A DNA stretch of 64,000 bases, taken from the NCBI GenBank assembly GCA_964486815.1, contig CAZAOO010000013.1:9965-73964 (forward strand), given 5' to 3'. Shown here piece after piece: positions 4,315-29,951 of the stretch. The position numbers and the translations under genes are program-made. The first letter of the stretch is position 1; every line of letters begins with the position of its first letter. This DNA comes from an uncultured Thiotrichales bacterium. GTDB lineage: Bacteria; Pseudomonadota; Gammaproteobacteria; UBA4575. The notes beneath the pieces are model-generated. The model worked only from the letters and a program-made list of their open reading frames with translations, made no database searches and was not told where the DNA came from.

Positions 4315-5003
4315 TGATATGTCTCCCATTGCGCAGGTGGCAACGCTTTTGCGAGCTATCATTTTTTGTTTGTTTGTTTCCTCCCGTGTTGATTTTATCT
4401 GCCTGTGTCACCGTTGAGAAACATCAGTTACCACCTGGCTCAGAAGTAACTAAAAAAGCTGCATGGGAGGTTCACCAGGCAAACATTCAAAGTCTGAAAA
4501 CCTGGAAATTACAAGGGCGTGTAGCTGGGAAATCAAACAATGAAGGGTTTCGTGCCGGAGTGCATTGGAATCAGCTACAAAGTAATTATGCAATTGATTT
4601 GTATGGGCCACTTGGTAGAAAAGTAGCGGTAATCTCCGGGAGAGAGGGAAGCGTTCAATTGAAAACTTCCAAAGGCGAAAGTTTTCAGGCGAATAACGCT
4701 GAAAACTTAATGCAGGATTTGTTTGGTTATTCTCTGCCTATAAATGGGCTTCGCCACTGGTTGTTAGGCATTCCTGATCCAAAACAAACTCACAATTTAT
4801 TAGCTTTAGATGAGCAAGGACGTTTGAAGAAGCTTGAGCAAGCGGGTTGGATCATCGATTATGCTGGTTATCATGAAAACCCCCTGATGTTGCCGGCATT
4901 GATTAAAATTTCTAATCCCACATTAAATGCAAATATCAAAGTAGATCGATGGATACTGGGCACGAAAGAAATAAGCACCAAAGAAATGGGCCCCAAAAAA
5001 TAG
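4314..5003 (+). CDS. lolB: outer-membrane lipoprotein LolB
   Basis: 229 aa. Lipobox LILSAC. Conserved lolB-ispE-prs synteny. Confidence 0.75.
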   Translation: MICLPLRRWQRFCELSFFVCLFPPVLILSACVTVEKHQLPPGSEVTKKAAWEVHQANIQSLKTWKLQGRVAGKSNNEGFRAGVHWNQLQSNYAIDLYGPLGRKVAVISGREGSVQLKTSKGESFQANNAENLMQDLFGYSLPINGLRHWLLGIPDPKQTHNLLALDEQGRLKKLEQAGWIIDYAGYHENPLMLPALIKISNPTLNANIKVDRWILGTKEISTKEMGPKK

Positions 5004-5083
5004 CCAAGCAAGAAAGTTGATTGGTACTCTTGCCGGTATATTTACCATTATATTTTAAATAATTTTAATCAGCTGATCTTGCT

Positions 5084-5968
5084 ATGCAAATATGGCCTGC
5101 ACCTGCAAAGTTAAATCTGTTTTTGCACATCGTTGGACAACGTGATGATGGTTATCATCTGCTGCAAACTGCCATTCAATTTATAGATATTTGTGATGAA
5201 TTAACATTTTCTTCTCGCACTGATAGCAGCATTAGTTGCGTAAATTCTAATCACACTATTTCTCAACAAGAAGATTTATGCTTTAAAGCAGCCTTAATGT
5301 TGCAAGAACAGATGTCAGCAAAGTCGCAAAATAAACAAGGCATTGATATCAGGCTAAACAAGAAAATTCCAATCGGTGCGGGTTTAGGTGGAGGAAGCTC
5401 TGATGCTGCAACGACCTTGTTGGCATTGAATCAAATTTGGGATTGTGGCTTAGAGCGGCAGGAGCTTGAGCTGATGGCGGCTAAATTAGGAGCAGATGTG
5501 CCGATATTTGTTCGAGGTCATGCGAGCTGGGTAGAGGGGATAGGCGAAAAACTTACACCTATTACTTTAGAAGAGCCATGGAGTGTTGTGGTATTTCCAA
5601 AAGTGCATTTAAATACTCAGCAGATGTTCGCAGATCCCGAGTTGACACGTGATTGCGTGCCCATCAAAATACGCGACTTCTTGCCAAAGAGTACCGGGAA
5701 ATTGAAGCTAGCCGACTTTGGGAAAACACAGAATGTGTTTGAATCGATAGCGCGACGTCAACCTAATATAGAGCGTGCTTTTCAATATTTGGGTAAGTAT
5801 TCGTCTGCTCGATTGACAGGTTCTGGAAGTGCACTGTTTATTACTTGTGCATCTAAGCTGCAGGCTGAAGAAATAGCTGCAAGTTGTACAAAAGAATTTA
5901 CCGCTTACGCAATGAAACGCTTAAATGTGTCACCAGTAATTTCGTTAAGTGAGTATAATAGTCCATAG
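5084..5968 (+). CDS. ispE: 4-diphosphocytidyl-2-C-methyl-D-erythritol kinase
   Basis: 294 aa. GHMP-kinase motif PIGAGLGGGSSDAA. Synteny with lolB/prs. Confidence 0.9.
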   Translation: MQIWPAPAKLNLFLHIVGQRDDGYHLLQTAIQFIDICDELTFSSRTDSSISCVNSNHTISQQEDLCFKAALMLQEQMSAKSQNKQGIDIRLNKKIPIGAGLGGGSSDAATTLLALNQIWDCGLERQELELMAAKLGADVPIFVRGHASWVEGIGEKLTPITLEEPWSVVVFPKVHLNTQQMFADPELTRDCVPIKIRDFLPKSTGKLKLADFGKTQNVFESIARRQPNIERAFQYLGKYSSARLTGSGSALFITCASKLQAEEIAASCTKEFTAYAMKRLNVSPVISLSEYNSP

Positions 5969-5995
5969 TTGCAGCAATTATAGACACTAAAAAAT

Positions 5996-6070
5996 TGGGC
6001 CGTCGCCAAGTGGTAAGGCACCGGGTTTTGATCCCGGCATTCGCAGGTTCGAATCCTGCCGGCCCAGCCA
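5996..6070 (+). tRNA. tRNA-Gln (UUG)
   Basis: Cloverleaf: acceptor tgggccg/cggccca, anticodon loop ttTTGat, discriminator G plus CCA. Close to E. coli tRNA-Gln. Confidence 0.85.
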
Positions 6071-6118
6071 ATTTCTCGTCATTCTAAATGACGTTTTAAA
6101 ACTAAAGACATTAATACT

Positions 6119-7093
6119 ATGCTTCTACAAAGATCCTTGCCTGCAGATAGTAATTTAATGGTGTTTTCCGGTAACGCACATCCAAAACTTGCACAGGGTA
6201 TTTGCGATGACCTAAACATCCCGATTGGTAAAGCATTTGTTAGCCAGTTTAGCGACGGCGAAGTGCAAGTTGAAATTCAAGAAAATGTACGCGGCAAAGA
6301 TGTTTTTGTAGTGCAACCAACCTGTATGCCAACCAATGACAATGTCATGGAACTGCTGATTATGATTGATGCATTAAAGCGTTCTTCAGCTGAGCGAATT
6401 ACAGCAGTCATGCCTTATTTTGGCTACTCAAGACAAGATCGCCGCGTGCGATCCATTCGTGTGCCCATTTCTGCCAAAGTCATTGCTAACTTATTACAGG
6501 TCGCAGGAGCAGATCGCGTCTTGACGGTAGATCTCCATGCAGATCAAATTCAGGGTTTTTTCGATATTCCTGTTGATAATATTTACGCCTCTCCCATTTT
6601 GCTAGGTGATGTATATAAACGCAAAGCCCCTAATTTAATAGTGGTGTCACCGGATGTGGGTGGTGTGGTACGTGCGCGCGCGCTAGCGAAAAGGCTGGAT
6701 GACGCTGATCTGGCAATTATTGATAAACGACGACCAGAAGCGAATAAATCCGAAGTTATGCACATTATTGGTGAGGTAGAGGGTAAATCTTGCTACATCA
6801 TTGATGATTTAGTCGATACTGCAGGTACTTTGTGTGCGGCGGCCAAAGCGCTGAAAGAGCATGGAGCAGTTAGTGTTAGGGCCTATGCCACTCATCCTGT
6901 GCTCTCGGGTAAAGCAATTAAAAACATTGAGAATTCTGTGCTGGATGAATTGGTAGTAACTGATACAATTCCGCTCCGCGAGGATGCTATCCGTTGCAGC
7001 CGGATCCGCCAGGTAGAGGTCTCGGGGCTGGTTGCCGAATCAATGCGTAGAATCAATAACGAAGAGTCTGTTAGCACCCTATATATGGATTAA
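6119..7093 (+). CDS. prs: ribose-phosphate pyrophosphokinase (true start probably the internal Met at ~6158)
   Basis: [13 protein letters not shown]..., PRPP-binding loop [12 protein letters not shown], 324 aa ORF. Confidence 0.92.
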
Positions 7094-7152
7094 GGTATAT
7101 GGGCGAGTAAGTGCTTAGTAGCAGAGAATAAGAGAAAGTTTGGAGTAATAGA

Positions 7153-7842
7153 ATGAGTGTCGATTTCACATTAAATGCAGAGTTACGCAACGAGCAAGAG
7201 TTAGGTAAAGCTTCTAGCAGAAGATTGCGAAATATGGGTAAAGTACCTGCCATTATGTATGGTGGTGGAGTAGCACCGGTGTCCATAACATTTGATCATG
7301 ACAAGCTTATGCATAGTCTTGAACAAGAAGCTATTTACTCCCACATTCTAACGATTGATGTAGCAGGTAAGTCACAACGAACAATCTTGCGTGATTTACA
7401 ACGTCATCCATATAAGCCAACCATTTTGCATATGGATTTGTTACGTGTCCGTGAAGACGTTGCCATTAATGTACACGTTCCATTGCACTTTTTAAACGAA
7501 GAGTCTTGTCCCGGCATAAAACTTGAAGGTGGTGTGGCTAGCCATAACATCGTTGAGATTGAGATTTCATGCTTGCCTAAAGACTTACCAGAATTTATTG
7601 ATGTCGATGTAGCGGATCTTAAATTAAATGATTCATTGCATCTTAGTGATATCAAAGTTGCAGAGGGTGTCACCATTGTTGAATTAGCGCATGGCGAAGA
7701 CCATGATCACGTGGTTGTGTCTGTGCATGCTAAACGCGCGGTAGAAGAAGAGCCGGTTGCGAGTGATGAAGCTGCAGCAGAAGATTCGCCAAAAAGCGAT
7801 GCAGCTAAGGATGAAGAAAAATCATCTGGAGATGATACATAA
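7153..7842 (+). CDS. rplY: 50S ribosomal protein L25 / general stress protein Ctc (long form with acidic C-tail)
   Basis: 229 aa. The L25 N-domain and its position between prs and pth are typical. Confidence 0.85.
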
Positions 7843-7871
7843 TTTATTCCCTTTAGTGTCTCAGCACACAT

Positions 7872-8453
7872 ATGTCTAATCTTAAAGGCATACGGCTAAT
7901 TGCCGGCCTTGGTAATCCAGGCGAAAAGCATGAACAAACCCGGCATAACGCCGGGTTTTGGTTTGTGGATGCACTCGCTGCAAGAGAAAAAGCAACCTTC
8001 AAGCTGGAAACCAAGTTTAAAGCTGAGGTTGCACACTTTTCATATAAAGGTGAAAAAATCTGGTTGCTTAAACCTCAAACCTATATGAATGATAGTGGTG
8101 AGTCATTACGGTCGTTCTGTGATTTTTATAAAATTCCAAGCGAGCAAGTTTTGGTAGCGCATGACGAGATCGATTTACCAAATGGCGAAGCTAAAATTAA
8201 ATGGGCTGGCGGACATGGTGGGCATAATGGTTTGCGAAGTATTTTCTCTCACTTAAGTAAAGATATTTGGCGTTTGCGACTAGGTGTTGGCCATCCTGGA
8301 CATAAAGACCAAGTGGTAGGTTATGTGCTAAAACAAATTAATAAAAGTGATCGTGCTGCGATCGATAATGCGATTATTGATGCGATGAACACCTTAGATG
8401 AATGTGTTGAAGGCGATATGGAAGCTGCTATGCGCCGATTGCATACTAAATAA
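7872..8453 (+). CDS. pth: peptidyl-tRNA hydrolase
   Basis: 193 aa. N-terminus LIAGLGNPGEKHEQTRHNAGF and the HDEIDLP motif. Confidence 0.92.
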   Translation: MSNLKGIRLIAGLGNPGEKHEQTRHNAGFWFVDALAAREKATFKLETKFKAEVAHFSYKGEKIWLLKPQTYMNDSGESLRSFCDFYKIPSEQVLVAHDEIDLPNGEAKIKWAGGHGGHNGLRSIFSHLSKDIWRLRLGVGHPGHKDQVVGYVLKQINKSDRAAIDNAIIDAMNTLDECVEGDMEAAMRRLHTK

Positions 8454-16846: not shown

Positions 16847-18111
16847 GTGCGTATGGTCAGCCCGTCTTGTAAAGTTTTCCTATAAGCACTGATCGCAGGG
16901 AAGATTGCGGCGATCAGTCCGCCTGTAATAATGGTTAACAGTATGAGCCATTGGAGCTTGGTTGGTGCATGAAGTTCAATGTTTAATCCATAGGTATTAA
17001 ACAAAATAGGGTTAATCAAAGCCAGCGAAGTGTATAGAATTATTAAGCCTAAAAGAATGCCAAGTATTACCAATATTTCTGATTCAATTACCATTAGTGA
17101 AAATATTGTCTTTGGTGAAGCACCAACTGAACGAAGGACCGCAATTTCACGGCGACGCTCATTTAGGTTGGTTAAAATAATGGCTAACATCCCTAGTAAG
17201 CCGGTCACAACAACAAGTGCTGCGATAATCAACATTACTTTTTCAATAGCGCCTACAACTTTCCATAGTTCCATGAGAGCAATACCTGGAATAATTGCGA
17301 GTAGAGGCTCAGATTTATAGTTGTTGATTCCACGTTGAATGGAGAAGATGTCTTGTTTATTTTTAAGTCCAAGTAAAAATGCTGTTATGGATTTGATTTG
17401 AAGTCTAGAATCATCTTCTTTTAAGTTGTCCGTCTGAATTGACTGCTGATTAGGTACGCCTTGTTCCCAACCTATATGCACGGCTTCTAATCCTTTTAAT
17501 GATATTAATACAGATCGATCTATGGGGGTCCCAGTTGGTTTTAATATGCCTGTTACAGTAAAAGGTAAGTTTTTATGTTCAGCAAAACTCACGTTCCCCA
17601 TTCCATGTGCCAGGATGATTTTATCACCAAGTTGATAATTAAGGGTTTTTGCAACTTCTGCACCAAGGACTGTATCAAAGATCCCTGAAAATTCTTCTCC
17701 GCTTAAGAAGGATAACTTATAACGTTTTCCATAATGATAATATTGAAATATATCTCTTGTCGTGCCAACGACTCTATGTCCTTTGTGAGAATCACCCAGA
17801 GAAATAGGGATGCTCCAATTTACACGTGGATGGTTGATGATTTTGTTATAGCTTTCCCATGAAACGTTATTCGTTGCATTTCCTAAATGAAAAACACTAT
17901 ATAGCAATAATTGCGCAGAACCGCTTCGCGATCCCACAATCAAATCTGTACCACTAATGGTATTGGCAAATTTTTCTTTGGCTTGTACACGTATGATATC
18001 TACACCTAGAAGTAACACAACACTGATTGCTAGTGAGAAGATGGCTAAACCAATAGAAAGCTTACGAAATCGAAGGCTTTTTAAAGCTAGTTGGATAATT
18101 TTGATGTTCAT
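16843..18111 (-). CDS. ABC transporter permease, MacB/LolC/FtsX type (ZrgC-like)
   Basis: 422 aa. N-terminal TM, large periplasmic domain, C-terminal FtsX-like TM bundle. Overlaps ATPase gene by 4 nt. Confidence 0.8.
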   Translation of the reverse strand: MNIKIIQLALKSLRFRKLSIGLAIFSLAISVVLLLGVDIIRVQAKEKFANTISGTDLIVGSRSGSAQLLLYSVFHLGNATNNVSWESYNKIINHPRVNWSIPISLGDSHKGHRVVGTTRDIFQYYHYGKRYKLSFLSGEEFSGIFDTVLGAEVAKTLNYQLGDKIILAHGMGNVSFAEHKNLPFTVTGILKPTGTPIDRSVLISLKGLEAVHIGWEQGVPNQQSIQTDNLKEDDSRLQIKSITAFLLGLKNKQDIFSIQRGINNYKSEPLLAIIPGIALMELWKVVGAIEKVMLIIAALVVVTGLLGMLAIILTNLNERRREIAVLRSVGASPKTIFSLMVIESEILVILGILLGLIILYTSLALINPILFNTYGLNIELHAPTKLQWLILLTIITGGLIAAIFPAISAYRKTLQDGLTIRT

Positions 18112-18812
18112 GCGTTTTCGACTGAGCTAAAGTCATTTAACGAAACAGAGCGATCGAATAAACTTGCTAATGTAAGGTCATGGCTGACAAATAATATCGC
18201 ACTATTACTTTTCATTGCTTCTTCAAATAATAGTTCTAAAAAGCCCTGTTTGGCATCTTGATCTAATGCCGAGGTGGGTTCATCTGCAATGATAATTTCA
18301 GGAGAGCCGATCAAAGCACGCGCTGCTGCTACACGTTGTTGTTGGCCAGTACTGAGCTCGGTGACATTTTTATAGATAATATCTTTGTCTTTTAAACCAA
18401 GTGCGGCTAATAACCTTAACGCTTCTTCCATAGTATTGCGTTTTTGTATAGATAACATTTCTCGTCTGCGCCATGAAAATAGACAGGGTAGAGTGATATT
18501 CTCTAAAACGTTGAGATAGGGTATTAAATTGAATTGTTGAAAAATTATACCCATGTGATCAGCTCGATACTGATCGCGTAATTTTTGTTTTTGGGAGAAT
18601 AAATTTTTTCCTAAAACAGTAATTTCTCCATGGGTAGGTTTGAGAACTCCTGAAATCAGATTTAATAAAGTTGTTTTCCCGCAACCACTTGGCCCGTGAA
18701 TAAATAACTTTTCTGCTTTTTTAAGAATCAGTGATTCAATATTGATTAAAGGCTTTTGGGTATTCTCCCAACAAAATTCAATATTTGATAACTGAATACA
18801 GGTTTGAGACAT
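18108..18812 (-). CDS. ABC transporter ATP-binding protein (ZrgB-like)
   Basis: 234 aa. Walker A GPSGCGKTT, signature LSTGQQQRVAAARAL, Walker B IIIADEPTSALD. Confidence 0.88.
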   Translation of the reverse strand: MSQTCIQLSNIEFCWENTQKPLINIESLILKKAEKLFIHGPSGCGKTTLLNLISGVLKPTHGEITVLGKNLFSQKQKLRDQYRADHMGIIFQQFNLIPYLNVLENITLPCLFSWRRREMLSIQKRNTMEEALRLLAALGLKDKDIIYKNVTELSTGQQQRVAAARALIGSPEIIIADEPTSALDQDAKQGFLELLFEEAMKSNSAILFVSHDLTLASLFDRSVSLNDFSSVENA

Positions 18813-18833
18813 AGAATAATTGATTTGATTTTG

Positions 18834-19460
18834 TTATTTTAATGATAGCGCACGTGTATTTGGTGTTGCAGTAAATAGATTTTGGCTCTCATTAGAAACA
18901 AATTGTACTTCAATCTTCTCAATTGTGGGGAAGTGATCAAATATTATATATTCAATTGATTCTGGGTTGTCGTGTGAGCAGCTGTATTTATAATGAATGG
19001 ATACATCGCTATGTTCTCCATCATTGTGTGATTCATCGTGATGATGTTCGTCTGAACCATGACCATCATGACCATCATGACCATCATGACCATCATTCTC
19101 TTTATTAACTAAATCAAAAATTCTACTTTCAAGGCTGACAGAATCAAGTTTGCATGCATTAGTTGGGTATATAGTAACAATGTTATCGTCACTTTCTAGT
19201 ATGGTCTTAGCATTTGTAATGCTTTTACGCTCTTCATTATTAAGTGGTTCATGCTCAAATCCAAATACGTCTATGGAGGGTAGTAATATCTCTAAGCTGA
19301 GTGTTTCGTCAATAAACGTAATTTGAGAAGTGGCCTGACCATGTACATGTGCTGCATGTTCCTCATGATCTGTTTCCAAGTGATGGTCTTCACCCGCATA
19401 TAAACTGATGCAGGAGGTTGTCATAAAAACTGCAATTAAATATTTAAGTATTTTCATCAT
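18834..19460 (-). CDS. His-rich periplasmic metal-binding protein (ZrgA / DUF2796-like)
   Basis: 208 aa. Signal peptide. Repeated DGHDGHDGHDGHGSDEHHHDESH and HEEHAAHVHG segments. Confidence 0.65.
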   Translation of the reverse strand: MMKILKYLIAVFMTTSCISLYAGEDHHLETDHEEHAAHVHGQATSQITFIDETLSLEILLPSIDVFGFEHEPLNNEERKSITNAKTILESDDNIVTIYPTNACKLDSVSLESRIFDLVNKENDGHDGHDGHDGHGSDEHHHDESHNDGEHSDVSIHYKYSCSHDNPESIEYIIFDHFPTIEKIEVQFVSNESQNLFTATPNTRALSLK

Positions 19461-19501
19461 GGTTGATATCTTTGGTTTATATGCAAGAAGTCATTTGGTT
19501 T

Positions 19502-19924
19502 CTAATTAGCAGATTTGACTTTGCATTTTCTTGTAGCTATTAGGTTAAACATGTGGCCTGACGCGTGAATTATACCTCCAAAGATGGTCAGCCAGGTTTC
19601 TGCTGTGTGAGGTATTGTGTGGTTTGCAATTAATGTTCCTGCATAAACTGCAGTAAATACTAATATCGTCAAACCTAATAATGAGATTATGGTGGGCGAA
19701 ATATTTCTATGAAAACGATATCCGGATATCGTGGCAAGAATACTCACTGGCAAAATAAATATTAGAATAAACTGGTGAAACCAGAATTCATGTAACGCAT
19801 GTCCATAGTGTATCGTAGTAGATATTAAGGGGATTAGGCTGGCAACAATTGGGAAAATCGCACAGTGAATAGCACATATACCTGATAGAGAAATTGCTAA
19901 ATGATCAAATTTATCTTGTAACAT
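19502..19924 (-). CDS. MerC-like small integral membrane protein (Cys/His motif CAIHCAIFP)
   Basis: 140 aa, 4 predicted TM helices, Cys-x-x-His-Cys motif. Paralog of the next gene. Confidence 0.5.
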   Translation of the reverse strand: MLQDKFDHLAISLSGICAIHCAIFPIVASLIPLISTTIHYGHALHEFWFHQFILIFILPVSILATISGYRFHRNISPTIISLLGLTILVFTAVYAGTLIANHTIPHTAETWLTIFGGIIHASGHMFNLIATRKCKVKSAN

Positions 19925-19999
19925 AATTATTATTAGTAAACTGAAAACAGTACTTGATGATGAAAAAAGTAACGAACGCCACTTCTATGTACTGCTTTG

Positions 20000-20398
20000 T
20001 TACTGATATGCACAGGTTTTATGATATTGGCATAAACGATAATTCCATATGTGAGAAGCAGCAATAATCGCTGCGCCGATGACTGTGAATGCTTTTTCTA
20101 AACTTTCTCCTAATAAATCGTGACCAAAAAGGGCAACCAGGCACAAAGTTAACAAGCCGATGCCGCCTAGCATTAATACTGGGTAGTGCTTGTGATTTTT
20201 GCAGCCCATTGTTAGTGCATAGGCGGAAATCGGCAAAATAGCAATTATCATCCATACATGAAATATTTCATCATTTAATGGCAAGGCTGCAATAGATGGG
20301 AGTAAAACAGCTAAAAGAGGTAGAGCTAAGCAGTGAATTGTGCATAGTAAAGATAAACTAATAGCTGTTTTATCTGTTATGAATTGAGTATTAACCAT
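20000..20398 (-). CDS. MerC-like small integral membrane protein (CTIHCLALP)
   Basis: 132 aa. Same architecture and motif as 19502-19924. Confidence 0.5.
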   Translation of the reverse strand: MVNTQFITDKTAISLSLLCTIHCLALPLLAVLLPSIAALPLNDEIFHVWMIIAILPISAYALTMGCKNHKHYPVLMLGGIGLLTLCLVALFGHDLLGESLEKAFTVIGAAIIAASHIWNYRLCQYHKTCAYQ

Positions 20399-20402
20399 TT
20401 AA

Positions 20403-22430
20403 TTATTCAAACTCAAGTGAGACACCTAGAGTAGCGCCTATACTAGGTAGCACAACACGGTCTTTTGTGAAGGAAGTATGTTGGCGTGCATCTTCATCCA
20501 ATAAATTTTCACCTCTAAGAAATACTTTTATGTCTGAATCACCGGCATAAAATGTCTTCGTTAAACTTGCGTTCAACATGGTGTAACTATCGGTATCGGT
20601 TTCAAGATCAGCTTCGTTGTTTGAGTCATCTACAAAGACAAGATCAACGGTTCCACTCCAAGTGTTACGAAAGCCCTCTAAGCCCAAGCCTAAGCGCCCA
20701 GTGGGAATACGCGGCACATCACCTGCATCGCTATCGTCAAACTCTGCTCGCACATAATCACCAAAAATGCGGCCACGCAGATCATATTTGCTATTGCTAA
20801 CAAGTTGCTTCACAAATTCTACTTCAATGCCGTAAAACTCCGCATCTTCATTTTCATATACACCGGCAAGTAACTCACCATCAAGCTCGAACATGCCTTC
20901 TTCATCTGTACGATCGGCGATGCCGTCATTATTGGCATCCAAAGACGCGAGATAAATGAAATCATCAATGCGGTTGTAGTAGGTATTAACCGCCCAGCTG
21001 TAACTGCTTTTATTTTGTTCTAGACCAATTTCAAAATTGTAGGACGTCTCCTCATCAATATTGGTAGAGCCGGTTTCAAATGTGAGGGTCGCTAGATGCG
21101 GGCCGTCAGCATATAAAGCGGTTTCTTGTGGTGCACGTTCAGTACGGGCAACAAATACATTCAATTGCATATCATTAGCCAATTGGCGTTGCGCACCGAA
21201 TGAAACTGAGTACACGCTAAAGTCTTCATCATCACCATTGTCAGGCTCAAATTCATCGCGATCAAAGCGTAGACCACCTTCTAAATCCCATAGCTCGTTG
21301 TGATAATGGCTTATTGCAAAGATTCCAAAGCGTTCTTGATCCAGTGGCGGAATAAATGCTTCTTCGCCTTCTGCAGCAAACTCGCGATCGTTATATTGCA
21401 CACCAAAGGCATTTTTCCAATCGTCATTGATGGTATGAATAAACTCGAGTCTTGATTCTAGCTCTTCATTATCAAATGCCGTAGCCACTTCTCCATCTTC
21501 TTCAATTTCAAAATGGCGGTAGTTGTTGTAAGCGGAGCGTAATGATATTTTTTCAATGTTGTTGAAGGGGTTATACAATTCTGCAAGCATGTCATAGCGA
21601 TATTGTTTTAAATCGATACGAATATCACCCTCTTCGGCTCCTGGCACACCAAAATTGGTGTCAAATCGATTATAGCCAAAGCCGATCATGCCTTTATCAG
21701 AAATATAACTTGCACCAAAACCATGGTTATCGGTTTCTACATCACTATTAGCTAATCGCCCTTTGTTTTCAGGTTCTTCTTCATTTGCGAAACCATCGAT
21801 ATCATAATCATTGGTATCGCGGGTTAAGCCATCGAAATGCCATGCAAAGTTATTAGTTGCGCCATTAAGTTCTAAAGCAGCTGTTTCACCGTCTGATACC
21901 GTGTCATGCTCCACTGCGGCTTTTAACTCAAATGGGCCTGTTTGTAGTGATTTTGGAATGCGATTATTAATGATATTAACAACACCACCAATGGCACCCG
22001 GCCCAAAACGCAATGTCGAAGGCCCACGCAAGATTTCAACTTGATTGGCAAAGTAGGGTTCAATCGACACAGGATGATCTTCACTAAGGCTGGAAACATC
22101 TAATGCGCCAATACCGTTTTCAAGTACCCGCACTCGGTTGCTACCTAGACCACGAATAATGGGGCGACTGGCACCGGGCGCAAAGGAAGTAGCGTTCACG
22201 CCTAGTTCATATTTAACAGTTTCACCAATTGAATTGGATTTTTTACGTTCCAATTCTTCACCGCTGAGGATGGTGACAGATTGAGCGAAATCATCTGGTT
22301 TTTCACCAGGAAACCATTTTGATTCAATTACAATTTCGGGTAAATCAATGGTTCCTGTTACTGATTGGTCATCTGCATACAGGTTAAAGCTTGAGAAACA
22401 TAGTAAACATATAGCTACACGGGCGTACAT
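20403..22430 (-). CDS. TonB-dependent outer-membrane receptor (Zur-regulon, ZnuD-like)
   Basis: TonB box-like N-terminus, plug and barrel motifs, C-terminal …LGVSLEFE with terminal aromatic. Likely start MYARVAICLL… at 22430 with GGAG upstream; the ORF track extends to a TTG at 22442. Confidence 0.85.
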   Translation of the reverse strand: MYARVAICLLCFSSFNLYADDQSVTGTIDLPEIVIESKWFPGEKPDDFAQSVTILSGEELERKKSNSIGETVKYELGVNATSFAPGASRPIIRGLGSNRVRVLENGIGALDVSSLSEDHPVSIEPYFANQVEILRGPSTLRFGPGAIGGVVNIINNRIPKSLQTGPFELKAAVEHDTVSDGETAALELNGATNNFAWHFDGLTRDTNDYDIDGFANEEEPENKGRLANSDVETDNHGFGASYISDKGMIGFGYNRFDTNFGVPGAEEGDIRIDLKQYRYDMLAELYNPFNNIEKISLRSAYNNYRHFEIEEDGEVATAFDNEELESRLEFIHTINDDWKNAFGVQYNDREFAAEGEEAFIPPLDQERFGIFAISHYHNELWDLEGGLRFDRDEFEPDNGDDEDFSVYSVSFGAQRQLANDMQLNVFVARTERAPQETALYADGPHLATLTFETGSTNIDEETSYNFEIGLEQNKSSYSWAVNTYYNRIDDFIYLASLDANNDGIADRTDEEGMFELDGELLAGVYENEDAEFYGIEVEFVKQLVSNSKYDLRGRIFGDYVRAEFDDSDAGDVPRIPTGRLGLGLEGFRNTWSGTVDLVFVDDSNNEADLETDTDSYTMLNASLTKTFYAGDSDIKVFLRGENLLDEDARQHTSFTKDRVVLPSIGATLGVSLEFE

Positions 22431-22486
22431 TATTAACTCCAATATAAAACCCTATAATTAGGGTATGAAAACTAGGGTATGAAAAA

Positions 22487-23049: not shown

Positions 23050-23727
23050 TGATGTTTTCCGCTTCTGGTTGGTTATTGCCTGAGTACATTAATTGGTTTG
23101 CAATATAACGATAAAGGATTTTCTACGGTCGGAGAAGAGGCGTTTATTTCGGCAGTTGAGTCTGATCGTTATGGGTTGTTTGTGATAACACAAAAAGAGT
23201 TCAATAAATGGAATATTGAATTTAGTGTGCGTGCGGAGCAGGTCGACTATGATCCCCAGTTTTTTTGCTGATGAAGATTTTGATGTCTATTCGCTATCGT
23301 TTGGCCTCATTCGAAAGCTACCCAATGACTTGAAAATACGCTTTAACCTGAGCCGATTCGAACGTCCACCAGAAGAATCAGCCTGTTTGCAGAAGGACCG
23401 CACTTGGCTACACTTACCTTCGAGCGTGGCAACACAACTATTGATGAAGAGGTTTTTAACAACTTGGAGATTGGGTTAAGTCAAGAAAATCGCAATACAA
23501 ACTGGCAGTTAAATGCATTCTATAATCGAGTGGATAATTTTATTTTTCTATCATCAGTGGATGAGAATAATGATGGCTTAGCAAACCGTGTAGATGAAGA
23601 AGGCATGTTTGAACTCGATGGAGAGTTGCTCCTGGGTGACTTTGTTAATGAAGATGTGGAATTTAATGCCGAACGTGTTCCACTACCAGGTATTGGCGCC
23701 AAATTTGGAATTTCTGTGAAATACTAG
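23050..23727 (+). pseudogene. decayed C-terminal remnant of a paralogous TonB-dependent receptor
   Basis: Three frames piece together …AEQVDYDPQFFADEDFDVYSLSFGLIRKL… / …LATLTFERGNTTIDEE…MFELDGELLLGDF…GISVKY. These align with the last ~220 aa of the receptor at 20403-22430. No N-terminus, several frameshifts. Confidence 0.7.
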
Positions 23728-23981: not shown

Positions 23982-25193
23982 TTAATTTGTCACTGCTAAT
24001 TTTTGCTTTGCACGATGATCTTTCGTTCCAGGAATGTATTTCGCGATACGTGGCACCTCATGCGCCAGTATGCATATATCTTTAATACCGTTTTTTTCTG
24101 CCTTGGATTCCACTGCGTCAGTTACTGAATCAGCTGTAGTTTGATTGGTAATGCAGCGAATGGTGGCATACTCATTATTAATATGTGCATGAGCTAATTC
24201 TGGGTGTTCGTGTTCATCTTCATACATAGATATGAAGCGTGAGTAACTTACATTTAATCCTGGGGCACCTGCATTAAGCATTAGATCCATCAGGTTTTGA
24301 GATTGGTCGCGATTCACAACGGTTGAGAAACAAACTTGATTAGTTAGCTCTTGTTTGTTCCGTTTACCAATAGCTAGTCCAGTGCCTTTGCCTTGATCAC
24401 CTACATCAAACACAGTTTGGTCACGCCAGTGTGTATGGCCCGTTAGGTGGTCGATTGCATGTATAATTTGTTGTGTATTAGCAGTGTAGTGTGGGTTTGC
24501 AATTCTACTTGGTAGATTAAACATACCCTTGTCAATTGGTAATCGATACATGAATCCACGACCGGGCAGATGAAATTCACCCGCTTTTTCCATAGCGGTA
24601 AAGATAGCTTCAACATCCGAGTTGTCTGCGAGTACCATTAAAATCTCTTGTTCACTGTCTTTAGTGATGCGAAGCCAGCCTAGTCGGTCGCGCAATCCTT
24701 TCCCTTCAGCAAAGTAAACAACTGGACCATGTGCGCCAGCATTGATTGCGGCTTTGGCAATATGGTCGCTTAATTTATGGCTAACGCTACAAAATATTGC
24801 ACTTAGGTTTCCAGAAAGCTTGTCCGAGTCAGTTGTAGTATTTAATTGTTCTTTAGTATGAAGGTTTTGAAAATCAGTACCGATGTAAGAACTTGTACAC
24901 GGTGTGCTAAACACTGCGCCTGTAGACTGCATGTCCAGCTTTCCTTCAAGAATGACCGTGTTAATAACACGATCGACATCATGTGCAGGCACGACCATAT
25001 GGAGTAACGTTTTTGACGGGCTAATGGGCGGCACCCAGGATTTCCACCAATGGTCACGAAGCACTGTACCACGTGCTTTTGAGACTAGAATATCGGTTAC
25101 TTCGTTGGTTGTCAGGGTTTCTATTACCGCATTTGCAGAGGGTACTGGAAGTGCTGCGGTAATGAGTGAGATATGGTGGTTGGTATTAAACAT
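23982..25193 (-). CDS. protein composed of tandem P-II (GlnB)-like domains (at least 3, probably 4)
   Basis: 403 aa. Repeated beta-alpha-beta…beta-alpha-beta modules, e.g. ISLITAALPVPSANAVIETL…LVSKARGTVL…LLHMVVPAHDVDRVINTVILEGK…GAVFSTP and LSAIFCSV…EILMVLADNSDVEAIFTAMEKAGE…GRGFMYRLPI. Overlaps the downstream DUF1538-like gene. Confidence 0.55.
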   Translation of the reverse strand: MFNTNHHISLITAALPVPSANAVIETLTTNEVTDILVSKARGTVLRDHWWKSWVPPISPSKTLLHMVVPAHDVDRVINTVILEGKLDMQSTGAVFSTPCTSSYIGTDFQNLHTKEQLNTTTDSDKLSGNLSAIFCSVSHKLSDHIAKAAINAGAHGPVVYFAEGKGLRDRLGWLRITKDSEQEILMVLADNSDVEAIFTAMEKAGEFHLPGRGFMYRLPIDKGMFNLPSRIANPHYTANTQQIIHAIDHLTGHTHWRDQTVFDVGDQGKGTGLAIGKRNKQELTNQVCFSTVVNRDQSQNLMDLMLNAGAPGLNVSYSRFISMYEDEHEHPELAHAHINNEYATIRCITNQTTADSVTDAVESKAEKNGIKDICILAHEVPRIAKYIPGTKDHRAKQKLAVTN

Positions 25194-26652
25194 TTATGCA
25201 GCTCCTAATTGTTTTTGAGTCACTGTCTAGTTCACCTTCCAAATTAGATTCGTTGGTCGCTTGAAGTTTCTTCTCCATTCTTTGGGTATATAGACCTACT
25301 GACAACACAGTCATGATTGGTCCGACAGATGCTAGGGCTAGAATTCCAAAACCATCACTTACACCTGGTACATTCGCACCCACACCAAGACCCATGGCGA
25401 GTACTAGGGGTACTGTTATTGGACCGGTTGTTACACCAGCGCTATCCCAGCCAAAATTCACAAAACTGTTTGGTGCACGCCATGTTAACAACAGTACTAA
25501 AACGTATGGTGGAATTAACATCCAAATAAGCGGTAAGTTATAAGCTATTTTTACTATGCCAGCACCGATGCCTAAACCAACACCGATTGCAACGGTTTGC
25601 ATGAGTAATTTCTTACGGAAAGCACCAACGGTTATACGTTCTACAGTATCTCCCAAGGCATTTAGCGCAGGCTCAGCTAGCGTGGCACCATAGCCTAAGA
25701 AAAATGCGAAGCCTACAGCAACAAATTTACCAAAGTGACCTTCACCAAATAGCGGGCCTTCTGAATGTTCAAATCCCCAAGGTACAATTTCTGCAAACGC
25801 TAATGGAATATTACTTCCAAGTTGTCCACCCAGTGGCGTTAATCCAAGAGTAATACCTAAGCTGAAAAGCGCCATGCCAACTAATGCAAATGTTACGCCA
25901 ATACCAACATCGTTACCTTTGTCCAAACGCTGTTTAAGGATTAGTCGAAGTACAAAATAGAGGAATAGACAAAGAGGGATAATTGCACGTAGGGCGCCAA
26001 TAAAGGCTTCTTTAAATTGATCAAACACAGAAGATTCTGTGTTCCAGGTTTTGTCGTCAATAATTTTAAAATCACGAGAGTAAATCTTCTTAACTACTAA
26101 ATTAGGGTCTTTAACAACGATCTTTCCACCTACTAAATCAGCCTTGCCACCGTTAAAGTCCAATTTATAACCATCAGGCAGTGCACCGGTTTTTAAATAT
26201 TCATTAAATTCAACATCAGAGATAGCCACTAACTTTGCACCAGCTTCTGTTTTGCTATTTTTTGTAGTAGTTGATTGAGTTTCAACTACTATGGAATCTT
26301 TGTAGTGTGAAGCACCATAATAATCATTACTGTTATAGTGATATAACGATAAAAGTAGGACTGCTAGTATGGGGAACAAAGATGCGAGCGTAACAATGCC
26401 AAAGCCAGAATGTCCGCCTCCACCATTACCACTACTTACAACTCTGCAAACACCTAAACCAAGTGCTAGCACCAAAGGAACGGTAACTGGGCCAGTAGTT
26501 ACTGCGCCACAATCCCATGCAAGGCCGAGTACATCACGTAATTCTGGTACCTGGCTAAAATAAAAAGATAATGTAAGTAAAACAACAACCGCAGGTATGG
26601 CAAGAAACTTTAGTGGCCATGCATAGAAGAAGCGTAACACACCTATCATCAC
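25186..26652 (-). CDS. DUF1538-like integral membrane protein with internal duplication and a ~130-aa soluble insert
   Basis: 488 aa. Two copies of WDxxxVTTGP(V/I)TVPLVLAxGLGV and a GATLAEPA motif. Gly-rich loops. 8-nt overlap with the P-II gene and 4-nt overlap with the next gene. Confidence 0.5.
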   Translation of the reverse strand: MMIGVLRFFYAWPLKFLAIPAVVVLLTLSFYFSQVPELRDVLGLAWDCGAVTTGPVTVPLVLALGLGVCRVVSSGNGGGGHSGFGIVTLASLFPILAVLLLSLYHYNSNDYYGASHYKDSIVVETQSTTTKNSKTEAGAKLVAISDVEFNEYLKTGALPDGYKLDFNGGKADLVGGKIVVKDPNLVVKKIYSRDFKIIDDKTWNTESSVFDQFKEAFIGALRAIIPLCLFLYFVLRLILKQRLDKGNDVGIGVTFALVGMALFSLGITLGLTPLGGQLGSNIPLAFAEIVPWGFEHSEGPLFGEGHFGKFVAVGFAFFLGYGATLAEPALNALGDTVERITVGAFRKKLLMQTVAIGVGLGIGAGIVKIAYNLPLIWMLIPPYVLVLLLTWRAPNSFVNFGWDSAGVTTGPITVPLVLAMGLGVGANVPGVSDGFGILALASVGPIMTVLSVGLYTQRMEKKLQATNESNLEGELDSDSKTIRSCINV

Positions 26653-27140
26653 TGCAAGCCCACACCAACACCCACGCTACTAACAAGTTGGCCTGAGAAA
26701 TCGTTCAATAAGCTATAGAGCAGCGGTGCTTGGTCCGGTAGCACTCCACTGCCAGCAGCTTTTAAAACTGCAATTGCAGGTTCAGCAAAAGTTGCTCCCG
26801 CACCAAGAAGAAAGGCAAATAGTAATATAATTGGCATGCCGCTTTTGCGTGGCAATATACTTCCTATGATTTCGCCCAAAGGCATTAAGCCTAAGCGTAA
26901 ACCTTCCATAAAAAACATTAAGCCGATTGCAACGATGAAGATGCCTACTGCAATCATGGCTGCATAAACAATTGGCAGTTGTAGAACGAGTAGTTGGAAT
27001 ATGATGAGATAAAATACAATAAACCAAATGCCTTCAATTTGGCTCATGAAGTTCCGCTTACCATAGGGCCAGAGCAGACGAAATGTATCGCGTAGACCTA
27101 AGCGAAAACGAGAGTTTTCAGTAGTATTTGGTGCATTCAT
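26649..27140 (-). CDS. DUF1538-like small membrane protein (GATFAEPA motif)
   Basis: 163 aa, 4 TM. Shares the …LGAGATFAEPAI… motif with the 488-aa partner. First gene of the three-gene operon. Confidence 0.5.
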   Translation of the reverse strand: MNAPNTTENSRFRLGLRDTFRLLWPYGKRNFMSQIEGIWFIVFYLIIFQLLVLQLPIVYAAMIAVGIFIVAIGLMFFMEGLRLGLMPLGEIIGSILPRKSGMPIILLFAFLLGAGATFAEPAIAVLKAAGSGVLPDQAPLLYSLLNDFSGQLVSSVGVGVGLQ

Positions 27141-27450: not shown

Positions 27451-28188
27451 TTGTATCAACACAATCAATCAATAACTACGTTTGATTCAAAAGCTTCTAC
27501 TTTAGATTCAGCGAGTATTAATTTCCTATGTTGGAATATTAAAAAAGGTTTGAAGCCGAATTGGCAAGAGGATTTATCTGATCTGGCCTATGGTAAAGAC
27601 TTGGTTATCATTCAAGAAGCTGTGTTGCATCCAGATTTAATCGGGGCTTTTGATAAGACCATGCACAGGACCTTTGCGAAAGGATATAAAACCAAAAAGC
27701 GTACCACAGGCCTAATGACGATCAGTAAGCATGAACCGGTAAGGCGGCACCAGCTGACCTGTTGGGAACCATGGTTGGCAACACCAAAATGTACAAGCAT
27801 TACTGAACATGCCTTATCAGGTACTCAAGAGACTCTAATCGTGGTAAATATTCACGCCATAAATTTCACCTTAGGGGTTAAACTATTTCGTAAGCAGATT
27901 GATAAAGTGCGCAAAGAAATCGCCAATCATAAGGGCCCGATCATACTTTCTGGAGATTTTAATACCTGGCGAAAAAAACGCATGAAAATTCTTGATGCGC
28001 TGGCATTGGAGCATGGACTTGAAGCATTGTCTTTCCAAGAAGATCATCGCAAGGCTGTATTTGGCCAAACATTAGATCATATTTATGTGCGTGCACTAAC
28101 GCCAGAAAGTACTGATACCTATAAGGTCAAGTCTTCTGATCATAATCCGATTTCAGCTGAACTAAGTTTTAGTTGGTCTCTTGCCTAG
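27451..28188 (+). CDS. endonuclease/exonuclease/phosphatase (EEP) family protein
   Basis: 245 aa. EEP motifs …IVVNIHAINF…, SGDFNTWR, LDHIYVR, SDHNPISAEL. Confidence 0.75.
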   Translation: MYQHNQSITTFDSKASTLDSASINFLCWNIKKGLKPNWQEDLSDLAYGKDLVIIQEAVLHPDLIGAFDKTMHRTFAKGYKTKKRTTGLMTISKHEPVRRHQLTCWEPWLATPKCTSITEHALSGTQETLIVVNIHAINFTLGVKLFRKQIDKVRKEIANHKGPIILSGDFNTWRKKRMKILDALALEHGLEALSFQEDHRKAVFGQTLDHIYVRALTPESTDTYKVKSSDHNPISAELSFSWSLA

Positions 28189-28701
28189 CTTTCTTTGTAG
28201 AGTTCTCCTGTGCATGTTTAAAGCGCGTGCGGTAGCAGAAAGATTTCCTTCATTTTCATTTAATACTTTTTGAATGTGCTCCCATTCTAAACGTTTAACT
28301 GACATAGGATTCATTTCTAGTGTTTGTTTGCTATTTCCTTCAGGCTTAAAAAATGCATTATAGATTTCATCACTGCTGGCAGGTTTTGTTAGGTACTGAG
28401 TTGCTCCTAGTTTAATAGCATCGACAGCTGTAGCGATACTTGCGTATCCAGTGAGCATAACTATTTTAATTGTTGAGTTAATCTCTTTTAATATAGGTAT
28501 TATCTGTAGGCCTGATTCACTACCCAGTCGCAAATCTACTAATGTATATTCAGGTTTGAATTGTTTTGCTAAGTCAATGGCATTGTCTATTGAATTGGCA
28601 TTGAATACTTTAAAGCCTTTTTTTTCTAAAGCCTTCTTCAGAGCAGAAGAATAAGCTTCATCATCTTCGATCACTAGTAAGTTTTTATTACCAATGCTCA
28701 T
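28162..28701 (-). CDS. response regulator, RegA/PrrA/ActR/RoxR family (REC + Fis-type HTH)
   Basis: 179 aa. LLVIEDDEAY…, receiver Asp in TLVDLRLG, LTGYASIATAVDAIKLGATQYLTKPA, C-terminal HTH_8. Confidence 0.8.
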   Translation of the reverse strand: MSIGNKNLLVIEDDEAYSSALKKALEKKGFKVFNANSIDNAIDLAKQFKPEYTLVDLRLGSESGLQIIPILKEINSTIKIVMLTGYASIATAVDAIKLGATQYLTKPASSDEIYNAFFKPEGNSKQTLEMNPMSVKRLEWEHIQKVLNENEGNLSATARALNMHRRTLQRKLGKRPTKT

Positions 28702-29951
28702 GCAATAGCTAATGTATCAAGAGATAGAGAGATGGTGGTTATCAATCCACCTTCAGCTTTATTTTTTAATGAAACCTTTCCGCCAAAACGTTTTATGATG
28801 CCATGGGATAAAAATAGGCCTAACCCTAAGCCTTTACTTTTGTCAGCAAACGGTTGTTGACCGATTATTTCAGAGTCATCCAGATGAATACCGGGGCCGT
28901 GATCTGATACTAATAAAGTAAGCGCTTGAGGCTCGAGGATAGCGTCAAAGCATACATATCCTGGTGAAACATTTGCTGCATTATCCAAAATATTTTTAAT
29001 TGCCTGTTTTAATGAGCGCTCGGCAATAATTTCTGGTCCGGGTGTAACGCCTTGCCAAGTTGATGTGACATTTACTTCAGGACGGGACGATGTCCAGTCG
29101 TCTAATAACTCAGTTACAAACTCTTGCACTAACATTGGCTCACCTTTTTCCAAGGGTGCGCTACCAACCGAGGCAGATAAAATAGATAATGCTTCTTTAC
29201 AACGCCTAATTTGATCTTTAAGTATATTGAGTTGTTTGTTGCTATCCCTTGTTATGTTATTTTCTTCTAGTTCTTCTATAACGAGCTGCATAGTCCCTAA
29301 TGGTGTGCCAAGCTCATGTGCAGTACTTGCCGCGATAGCACCGAGCCTAACTATTTGTTCATTTTGTAAGGCATTTGTTTTTTGCTCAGCTAATTCTTTT
29401 TGTTGTAACTGAATTGTGCGTCCCATTCTCACTACAAAGAATGAGACCAAAATAGCACTGATAACAAATCCTAGCCACATACCTGTGACGTGTAGTTCAA
29501 AATTATGTGCATGTGAACTATGTTCGTTCATAGGATTGAATACCCATACAAGCAAGCCATAACAAGCAATTGTTATTGTGGCAAGTAGCCAAGTAAAAAT
29601 GGCGGGCAAAGTGATTGCAGATATGGTTAACGGGATTAAATAAAGTGAAACAAAAGGGTTAGATCCACCCTCAGAATATTTAAATAGTATCGTTAGAATA
29701 ATTATATCTACTAATATATGAGCAAAGAATTCCCAGCGTTGAATGATTAAGCTGCTGCTGTAGGTGCGTAAGTAAGTTAGTAAATTTATGAGCGCATAAA
29801 TTCCGATCCACAAATATAAATATTTTGTTTGCAGGCTGATGTTTAGAAAATTGCTGGTAAAATACACTGCTGCAAACTGGCCTACGATAGCAATTAAACG
29901 CAGCCAAATTAACAAGCGTAAATTTATACGATATTCTTGAGATTGATCCAT
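28698..29951 (-). CDS. sensor histidine kinase, RegB/PrrB/RoxS type (6-TM N-terminus)
   Basis: 417 aa. Multi-TM N-terminus. H-box TAHELGTPLGTMQLV. HATPase_c G-boxes. Overlaps the regulator gene. Confidence 0.78.
   Translation of the reverse strand: MDQSQEYRINLRLLIWLRLIAIVGQFAAVYFTSNFLNISLQTKYLYLWIGIYALINLLTYLRTYSSSLIIQRWEFFAHILVDIIILTILFKYSEGGSNPFVSLYLIPLTISAITLPAIFTWLLATITIACYGLLVWVFNPMNEHSSHAHNFELHVTGMWLGFVISAILVSFFVVRMGRTIQLQQKELAEQKTNALQNEQIVRLGAIAASTAHELGTPLGTMQLVIEELEENNITRDSNKQLNILKDQIRRCKEALSILSASVGSAPLEKGEPMLVQEFVTELLDDWTSSRPEVNVTSTWQGVTPGPEIIAERSLKQAIKNILDNAANVSPGYVCFDAILEPQALTLLVSDHGPGIHLDDSEIIGQQPFADKSKGLGLGLFLSHGIIKRFGGKVSLKNKAEGGLITTISLSLDTLAIA

Follow-up and report, generated by a model that had tools for sequence, protein, structure and literature searches.

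The window analysed here is a 64,000-nucleotide (nt) stretch of contig CAZAOO010000013.1 (assembly GCA_964486815.1) from an uncultured Thiotrichales bacterium, and the subject of this report is a gene cassette at positions 23982–27140 of it, in which a membrane transporter of the DUF1538 family is paired with a protein that carries three P-II-like domains in a single chain. Three open reading frames (ORFs) of 163, 488 and 403 amino acids (aa) occupy 26649–27140, 25186–26652 and 23982–25193 respectively; all are on the minus strand, as are all features of the cassette given below, and they lie where an earlier interpretation made from the letters alone (the sequence-only reading) had placed them. 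That reading had also described overlapping stop and start codons, which were found at both junctions. The 163-aa and 488-aa ORFs meet in a GTGA/TGATG overlap at 26649–26652 (CAG TGA TGA TAG, with GTG and ATG starts inside), and the start of the 403-aa gene overlaps the stop of the 488-aa ORF by 8 nt (25186–25193), with AGGAG located 9 nt 5' of the ATG. Pfam searches detected the P-II family (PF00543) in two stretches of the 403-aa protein (34.2 bits, above the cutoff of 25) and DUF1538 (PF07556) in both membrane ORFs (266.6 bits over two stretches in the 488-aa ORF, 81.2 bits in the 163-aa ORF), in agreement with the multi-P-II chain and DUF1538 partner originally proposed. The motifs GATFAEPA, GATLAEPA and the twice-occurring WDxxxVTTGPxTVPLVLAxGLGV were likewise all present in the ORF translations.

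The 163-aa ORF matched just positions 1–113 of the 211 positions of the DUF1538 profile, and the best stretch in the 488-aa ORF was aa 229–454 (profile positions 3–210 of 211). With the NCBIfam models UmpA and UmpB the membrane ORFs of the window gave weak scores of 58–158 bits; UmpA was the best match of the 163-aa ORF, and the UmpB match in the 488-aa ORF spanned aa 216–462. In the closest relatives, which have the same neighbouring genes and a P-II protein 85% identical to that of the window, the membrane protein is a single product of 646–647 aa, and the 163-aa ORF is collinear with residues 1–162 of single proteins of 646–648 aa in relatives. Of the 120 proteins most similar to the 488-aa ORF product, 119 are 559–662 aa in length (all but one 608–662 aa), and the sole protein of 487 aa is the window's own. 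DNA alignment placed a 1-nt deletion at 26658–26661, where the last base of a Gly codon within VGVGVG/LAVM is missing; it is a single gap, with the window reading GGTGTGGG-CTTGCA where the relatives L005 and L003 read GGTGTAGGCCTTGCT and GGCGTCGGTCTTGCG. When the missing base is restored the window encodes VGVGVGLAVMIGVLRFFY, agreeing with IGVGLAVMLGVLRFFY in the relatives, and the repaired membrane protein is 651 aa long. In L005 the intact gene pair spans 4060–6000 and 6001–7212 of that locus. The deletion shifts the reading frame and thereby generates both the new stop and the TGATG stop/start overlap at 26649–26652.

The repaired 651-aa protein was compared by tblastn with 81 loci and gave a single unbroken match directly 5' of the P-II gene in almost all of them (∼70 loci); the exceptions were the window's own two assemblies and two loci, L004 and L015, broken at other positions. 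Judged by these comparisons the 163-aa and 488-aa ORFs are one frameshifted gene, to be annotated as such, in place of the two distinct membrane proteins of the sequence-only reading. The repetition of motifs from which an internal duplication of the 488-aa ORF had been deduced is present, but because the two ORFs are one gene it represents the back half of one repeat (A) and the whole of a second (B). The DUF1538x2 gene of L004 (4053–6000) is split into 442 and 185 aa, that of L015 (4048–5986) has a frame shift at residue 29 and that of a further locus, L092 (2093–4008), is split into 568 and 65 aa at yet another position; the contig names hint at long-read assemblies, and these splits may be assembly errors rather than biology.

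The lesion in the window may represent a very recent inactivation, a sequencing error common to both assemblies, or a change that is tolerated as a split protein, for which the in-frame ATG in TGATG could permit re-initiation. In the first case the deletion would be real and would inactivate the transporter, leaving the gene pair dead in this organism, whatever the family does elsewhere. The identical split occurs in two assemblies, it falls within a predicted helix of repeat A (149–173 in a structure model of a homolog), and the degraded remnant of a TonB-dependent receptor gene directly downstream (23216–23727) is evidence of real gene decay nearby. However, both assemblies were built from the same reads, those of the stromatolite-metagenome run SRR3310977, so an error in sequencing is possible, and the lesion is the only one found, with every column that is invariant in 50 relatives unchanged in both the repaired transporter and the P-II protein. 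Moreover, the TGATG overlap would allow re-initiation, and DUF1538 transporters naturally work as separate subunits, although these are divided between the repeats and not within one. A dead gene pair is a possibility to be taken seriously, albeit one that we hold to be the less probable state of the locus.

Read as one gene, the membrane ORFs encode two DUF1538 repeats separated by a soluble insert. The 163-aa ORF contains GATFAEPA and corresponds to the N-terminal half of the UmpA-type repeat A; the second half is aa 1–104 of the 488-aa ORF (26341–26652), which contains the first WDCGAVTTGPVTVPLVLALGLGV motif and in homologs runs on from the 163-aa ORF without a break. The insert of ∼110 aa (26008–26340) gave no Pfam match. 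Repeat B (UmpB-type, 25267–26007) carries GATLAEPA and the second WDSAGVTTGPITVPLVLAMGLGV motif, and a short tail continues to the stop at 25186. The DUF1538 profile is fully covered in the 488-aa ORF, intact homologs have two full repeats, and the E and D of the AEPA and WDxxxVTTGP motifs are invariant in both repeats. In an intact homolog repeat A scored 128 bits with UmpA against 72 with UmpB, while repeat B scored 119.7 bits with UmpB against 101.8 with UmpA. The NCBIfam equivalog cutoffs for UmpA and UmpB (NF041627 and NF041628) are 490 and 500 bits, and with 128 and 120 bits the intact homolog is not an equivalog of either. The structure model of the homolog P0122 (predicted local distance difference test (pLDDT) 72.6; predicted template modelling score (pTM) 0.72) is all-helical save for a small beta unit in the insert, where a disordered stretch is followed by one helix and a four-strand beta unit (residues about 269–369). 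Comparison of the model with solved transporters, SbtA and AmtB among them, revealed no resemblance, and neither an SbtA (PF05982) nor an Amt fold was found in the membrane partner.

The family's only functional report, from 2017, concerns UmpAB of Halomonas zhaodongensis, a DUF1538 pair that forms a heterodimeric, pH-dependent Na+(Li+,K+)/H+ antiporter and made E. coli KNabc tolerant of salt and alkali again (PMC5484666). The statement in the sequence-only reading that no substrate had been assigned to DUF1538 is superseded by this antiporter and by the existence of the NCBIfam UmpA and UmpB models. One member of the family is hence characterised, but the window protein lies far below the equivalog cutoffs. 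The two systems share the Pfam family PF07556, two homologous repeats in A-then-B order, and the GAT(F/L)AEPA and TTGP motifs; they differ in that the window-type subunits are fused in one chain with the ∼110-aa insert and are always followed by a triple P-II gene, and the window protein is not an ortholog of UmpAB. The membrane protein is a fused form, of ∼650 aa, of a two-subunit UmpAB-type transporter.

The 403-aa protein was modelled with AlphaFold on the basis of 52 homologs (pLDDT 72.8, pTM 0.74), yielding three units of twice-repeated beta-alpha-beta, each with a low-confidence loop between strands 2 and 3. Each is thus a ferredoxin-like beta-alpha-beta-beta-alpha-beta domain of ∼100 aa with a strand 2–3 loop, which is the arrangement of the P-II fold. 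Their limits were taken from the model. Domain 1 (aa 8–104, 24882–25172) contains the best Pfam P-II stretch (aa 11–100); domain 2 (aa 130–226, 24516–24806) has EGxGLRDRLGWLRITK in the T-loop position; and domain 3 (aa 286–384, 24042–24338) has a variable acidic loop there. Domains 2 and 3 are separated by a 50-residue linker that includes an inter-domain motif (aa 237–260, ANTQQIIHAIDHLTGHTHWRDQ; 24414–24485) invariant or near-invariant in the 52 homologs; this linker holds a single predicted helix (240–250), the rest of the motif having low pLDDT. The fourth P-II domain that the sequence-only reading had thought likely is accordingly absent, as the model and the conservation both show three domains only.

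Searches with Foldseek aligned the single domains to GlnK/PII chains with a template modelling score of ∼0.73, and CPII and SbtB were among the best structural matches. By hhalign with a broader alignment the domains matched, over their full length, the single P-II proteins linked to DUF1538 in Methylocystis and Chelativorans, with 97.7% probability for domain 1, 99.0% (E 9e-18) for domain 2 and 98.2% for domain 3; against E. coli GlnB/GlnK the probabilities were 95% for domain 1 and 85% for domain 3. The three domains are strongly diverged from each other (domain 1 against domain 2, E 6e-5; other pairs weaker). Domain 2 is the best-aligning counterpart both of the single P-II proteins of Methylocystis and Chelativorans and of the C-terminal domain in the clostridial double P-II. 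All three P-II-like domains appear to descend from the kind of small P-II protein found beside unfused DUF1538 pairs. The positions equivalent to the B-loop read ATGAVF in domain 1 and PGRGFM in domain 2, with no equivalent in domain 3. Because the model reached a pTM of 0.74 despite a quarter of its residues being disordered, the three domains appear to be packed in a fixed mutual arrangement, which suggests a closed pseudo-trimer. No solved structure of a single-chain triple P-II was found for comparison.

Conservation along the chain was assessed in 115 full-length sequences, comprising 114 representatives of 50%-identity clusters and the window protein. The most conserved segment was the domain 2 loop (GxGxRDxLGxLRIT, mean 0.73), whose invariant residues include R168, D169, R175 and T177, followed by the motif after domain 2 (core QIIxAIDxLxGxxxWR, 0.62); the domain 3 loop was variable (0.15), and conservation of the domain 1 loop was confined to the gammaproteobacterial clade. 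This pattern is consistent with domains 1 and 3 mainly filling out a trimer-like body, which would leave one effective loop per transporter. Within the gammaproteobacterial clade the linker sequence AIDHLxGHxHWRDQ is invariant and has three His and an Asp within 11 residues, a possible metal site; remote members keep just AIDxL...WR (for example AIDHLNDSMEWRR in L081), and the linker His residues are clade-specific.

The same data bear on whether the triple P-II protein regulates anything, as it may instead be a constitutive cytoplasmic cap required for assembly or stability of the transporter, with its P-II ancestry of historical significance only. Such a structural subunit would agree with the loss of the canonical B-loop and T-loop signatures, the poor conservation of domains 1 and 3 in the broad family (0.31–0.45), the strict co-occurrence with the transporter, and the co-variation of the insert with the third domain (partners of 622–703 aa with triple P-II against ∼500 aa with double P-II). 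The T-loop and B-loop are the parts of P-II that serve effector-dependent target binding, and it is the loop in the T-loop position of domain 2 and the Gly-rich PGxGF at its B-loop position that are best conserved, which argues against a cap, as does the ability of UmpAB to work without such a subunit. A purely structural role is considered improbable.

The triple P-II profile matched 1011 clusters (50% identity) with E ≤ 1e-3, 416 with E ≤ 1e-10 and 128 with E ≤ 1e-30, and most members of the family are 365–400 aa in length. With 416 clusters at E ≤ 1e-10, the architecture can no longer be called rare, as it had been. In species-representative genomes the scan yielded 75 loci, every one of them in a metagenome-assembled genome; they belong to marine Gammaproteobacteria (Thiotrichales, Pseudomonadales/Halioglobus, Woeseiaceae, Granulosicoccus and others) and one Pseudobdellovibrionaceae. 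Clustering of the flanking ORFs grouped the DUF1538x2 proteins of 73 loci, with a median of 646 aa, and the triple P-II proteins of 74, with a median of 398 aa; the next most frequent family was present in 12. The same gene pair was also found in Bdellovibrionota (Pseudobdellovibrionaceae), Zixibacteria, Syntrophomonadaceae and on other contigs, and the transporters of the remote members (Zixibacteria, Syntrophomonadaceae and others) measure 622–703 aa. Genes for carboxysomes, RuBisCO, carbonic anhydrase or nitrogen assimilation did not recur beside the cassette in the loci compared. The cassette is self-contained and consists of two genes, with no other conserved partner. In two loci, L083 from Zixibacteria (6400–8078) and L091 (2022–3578), genes of K+-channel type (Ion_trans_2, TrkA_N/RCK, cNMP_binding) lie directly 3' of the triple P-II gene, a possible hint that the cassette is tied to monovalent-cation homeostasis.

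The sequence-only reading had stated that DUF1538 genes elsewhere adjoin separate P-II genes, and this was borne out in five annotated plasmid or chromid records (L086–L090: Chelativorans, Vescimonas, Peptoclostridium, Methylocystis and Paraclostridium). Methylocystis has two separate DUF1538 genes and a P-II of 122 aa; Chelativorans has a short fragment and a full DUF1538 gene, followed by a P-II of 112 aa; and the Clostridia Vescimonas, Peptoclostridium and Paraclostridium have a fused DUF1538x2 protein of ∼500 aa and a two-domain P-II of 222–224 aa. All of these small P-II genes are directly 3' of DUF1538, which is the position occupied by the triple P-II gene. The small proteins, annotated as P-II family nitrogen regulators, are homologous to every domain of the 403-aa protein (hhalign 98–99%); they differ from it in having only one or two domains (112–122 or 222–224 aa), without the QIIxAIDxL...WR linker or third domain, and in having as partners transporters without the soluble insert, which is also missing from the fused ∼500-aa proteins paired with double P-II. 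In the loci sampled, more P-II domains thus go with a fused transporter, and more still with one that has gained the insert, and the single, double and triple forms suggest a graded series leading to the three-domain protein.

In GlnK-AmtB and SbtB-SbtA, P-II or P-II-like proteins plug trimeric transporters by means of their T-loops. The system in the window differs from these in several respects: its regulator is one chain with three non-equivalent domains rather than a homotrimer; strong conservation in the broad triple P-II family is limited to one loop; the 403-aa protein lacks the canonical signatures; and the membrane partner, built of two repeats, comes from another family, one without a solved structure. 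The triple P-II protein belongs to the P-II superfamily but is not a canonical GlnB/GlnK, and the transporter is unrelated to SbtA and AmtB. CPII, CutA, DUF3240 and PstA/DarA are single-domain chains that form homotrimers, unlike the triple P-II protein, to which they show 8–15% identity in the structural alignments, and to our knowledge none of them has been reported with DUF1538. A search of the available literature library found no paper that linked P-II with DUF1538 or described fused two- or three-domain P-II chains of this kind, in line with the suggestion that the arrangement may be an undescribed one.

The reading that best accounts for the cassette is that it encodes a P-II-gated transporter, probably exchanging monovalent cations for protons and regulated by a covalent pseudo-trimer in which one effector loop dominates; we give this a probability of roughly 60%. 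Gating by P-II, as the sequence-only reading had proposed, is by analogy still the most reasonable model. The domains of the triple P-II protein would pack as a covalent pseudo-trimer on the cytoplasmic side of the transporter, where the T-loop-like segment of domain 2 and the QIIxAIDxL...WR motif would contact it, and binding of a small-molecule effector would cause this contact to open or block the transporter. One regulator chain would serve each monomeric two-repeat transporter, instead of a trimer acting on a trimer. The complex, its gating and its ligand are modelled on GlnK-AmtB and SbtB-SbtA; the domain content, homology and fusion state of the proteins, their tight and exclusive pairing across phyla, and the frameshift in the window were observed directly. 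A monovalent cation/H+ substrate is a best guess, towards which UmpAB, the invariant acidic residues and the K+-channel neighbours point weakly.

Several points weigh against this P-II-gated antiporter. Taken singly, the domains are below the Pfam cutoff, with 17, 15 and 0 bits (no match for domain 3), and the T-loop Tyr/uridylylation and B-loop TxxxG(D/Y)G(K/R)(I/V)(F/W) signatures of canonical GlnB/GlnK (PROSITE PS00496 and PS00638) were absent from the 403-aa protein by pattern matching, while E. coli GlnB as a control matched both. As the canonical nucleotide and 2-oxoglutarate signatures are missing, sensing of a ligand by the triple P-II is a prediction, and the trimer-like geometry is likewise predicted, from pTM and secondary structure. 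Gene adjacency and coupling are the sole basis for an interaction of the two proteins, and the transporter gene in the window is interrupted within predicted helix 149–173, which may abolish its function. UmpAB is distant from the window clade (scores of 128 and 120 bits where the cutoffs are 490 and 500), was active in E. coli without any P-II, and was assayed by complementation of a Na+-sensitive strain, so that the physiological substrate of the window clade may differ (PMC5484666).

The transporter could instead carry bicarbonate, another anion or a metabolite, with the P-II array acting, like SbtB towards SbtA, as a reporter of carbon or energy status. In favour of this, P-II-like proteins are known partners of transporters that carry ammonium (GlnK), bicarbonate (SbtB) or nitrate (PII with NrtBCD, 8wm7); CPII and SbtB rank with the closest structural matches; the window protein falls outside the UmpAB equivalogs; and the gene neighbourhoods otherwise give no guidance. 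However, the sole family member tested is a cation/H+ antiporter, the carboxysome, RuBisCO, carbonic anhydrase and nitrogen-assimilation genes do not recur beside the cassette, and the membrane model is unlike SbtA, AmtB or any solved transporter. A substrate of this kind is regarded as unlikely. The P-II-gated cation/H+ transporter is preferred, and a further-reaching form of it remains tentative and falls somewhat short of an even chance. The triple P-II would be a previously undescribed single-chain P-II, a covalent pseudo-trimer of three ancient and by now non-equivalent domains that has kept essentially one T-loop (domain 2) and the new QIIxAIDxL...WR motif and acts as a 1:1 regulator of a monomeric DUF1538 transporter. 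The series of single, double and triple forms, running parallel to unfused, fused and fused-plus-insert transporters, would record a stepwise co-evolution that reconciled the symmetry of a trimeric regulator with that of a dimeric target.

The genes that surround the cassette in the window were also inspected. Directly downstream of the P-II gene, on the plus strand at 23216–23727, two short overlapping ORFs (87 and 107 aa) preserve parts of a former TonB-dependent receptor gene, paralogous to that of an intact receptor of 679 aa on the minus strand at 20403–22442 (62% identity to residues 450–536 and 46% to residues 395–442); a further piece matches residues 642–678. By this alignment the remnant is a frameshifted, internally deleted pseudogene. 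Upstream, at 28162–29951 (minus strand) and 27451–28188 (plus strand), are genes for a sensor kinase with six transmembrane segments and a response regulator of 179 aa, with a convergent Exo_endo_phos gene between them. The regulator has Response_reg and HTH_8 domains, and the pair is RegB/RegA-like by domain content. As this arrangement is syntenic in the closest relatives only (12, 9 and 7 of 74 loci), the group probably lies outside the cassette. A gene for a MerC-like membrane protein (PF03203) is present at 20000–20398 within 18108–20398, all on the minus strand, and gene calls on the identical contig L001 placed another MerC-like gene, together with an ABC transporter of MacB type (ABC_tran, MacB_PCD/FtsX), past the TonB-dependent receptor, on the far side from the cassette. 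The MerC-like and MacB genes may form a metal-related cluster.

Few signal transducers are as widespread as the P-II proteins, whose described trimers are made up of subunits that are identical or nearly so. A covalent, asymmetric P-II, if this is what the cassette encodes, would have three ligand sites and three effector loops that are free to diverge, and would constitute a natural experiment on which parts of the P-II trimer control a target. DUF1538 transporters would, in that case, gain a regulatory logic. The cassette is common in Gammaproteobacteria of marine sediments and stromatolites and is found in several other phyla, and its compactness leaves it open to heterologous expression.

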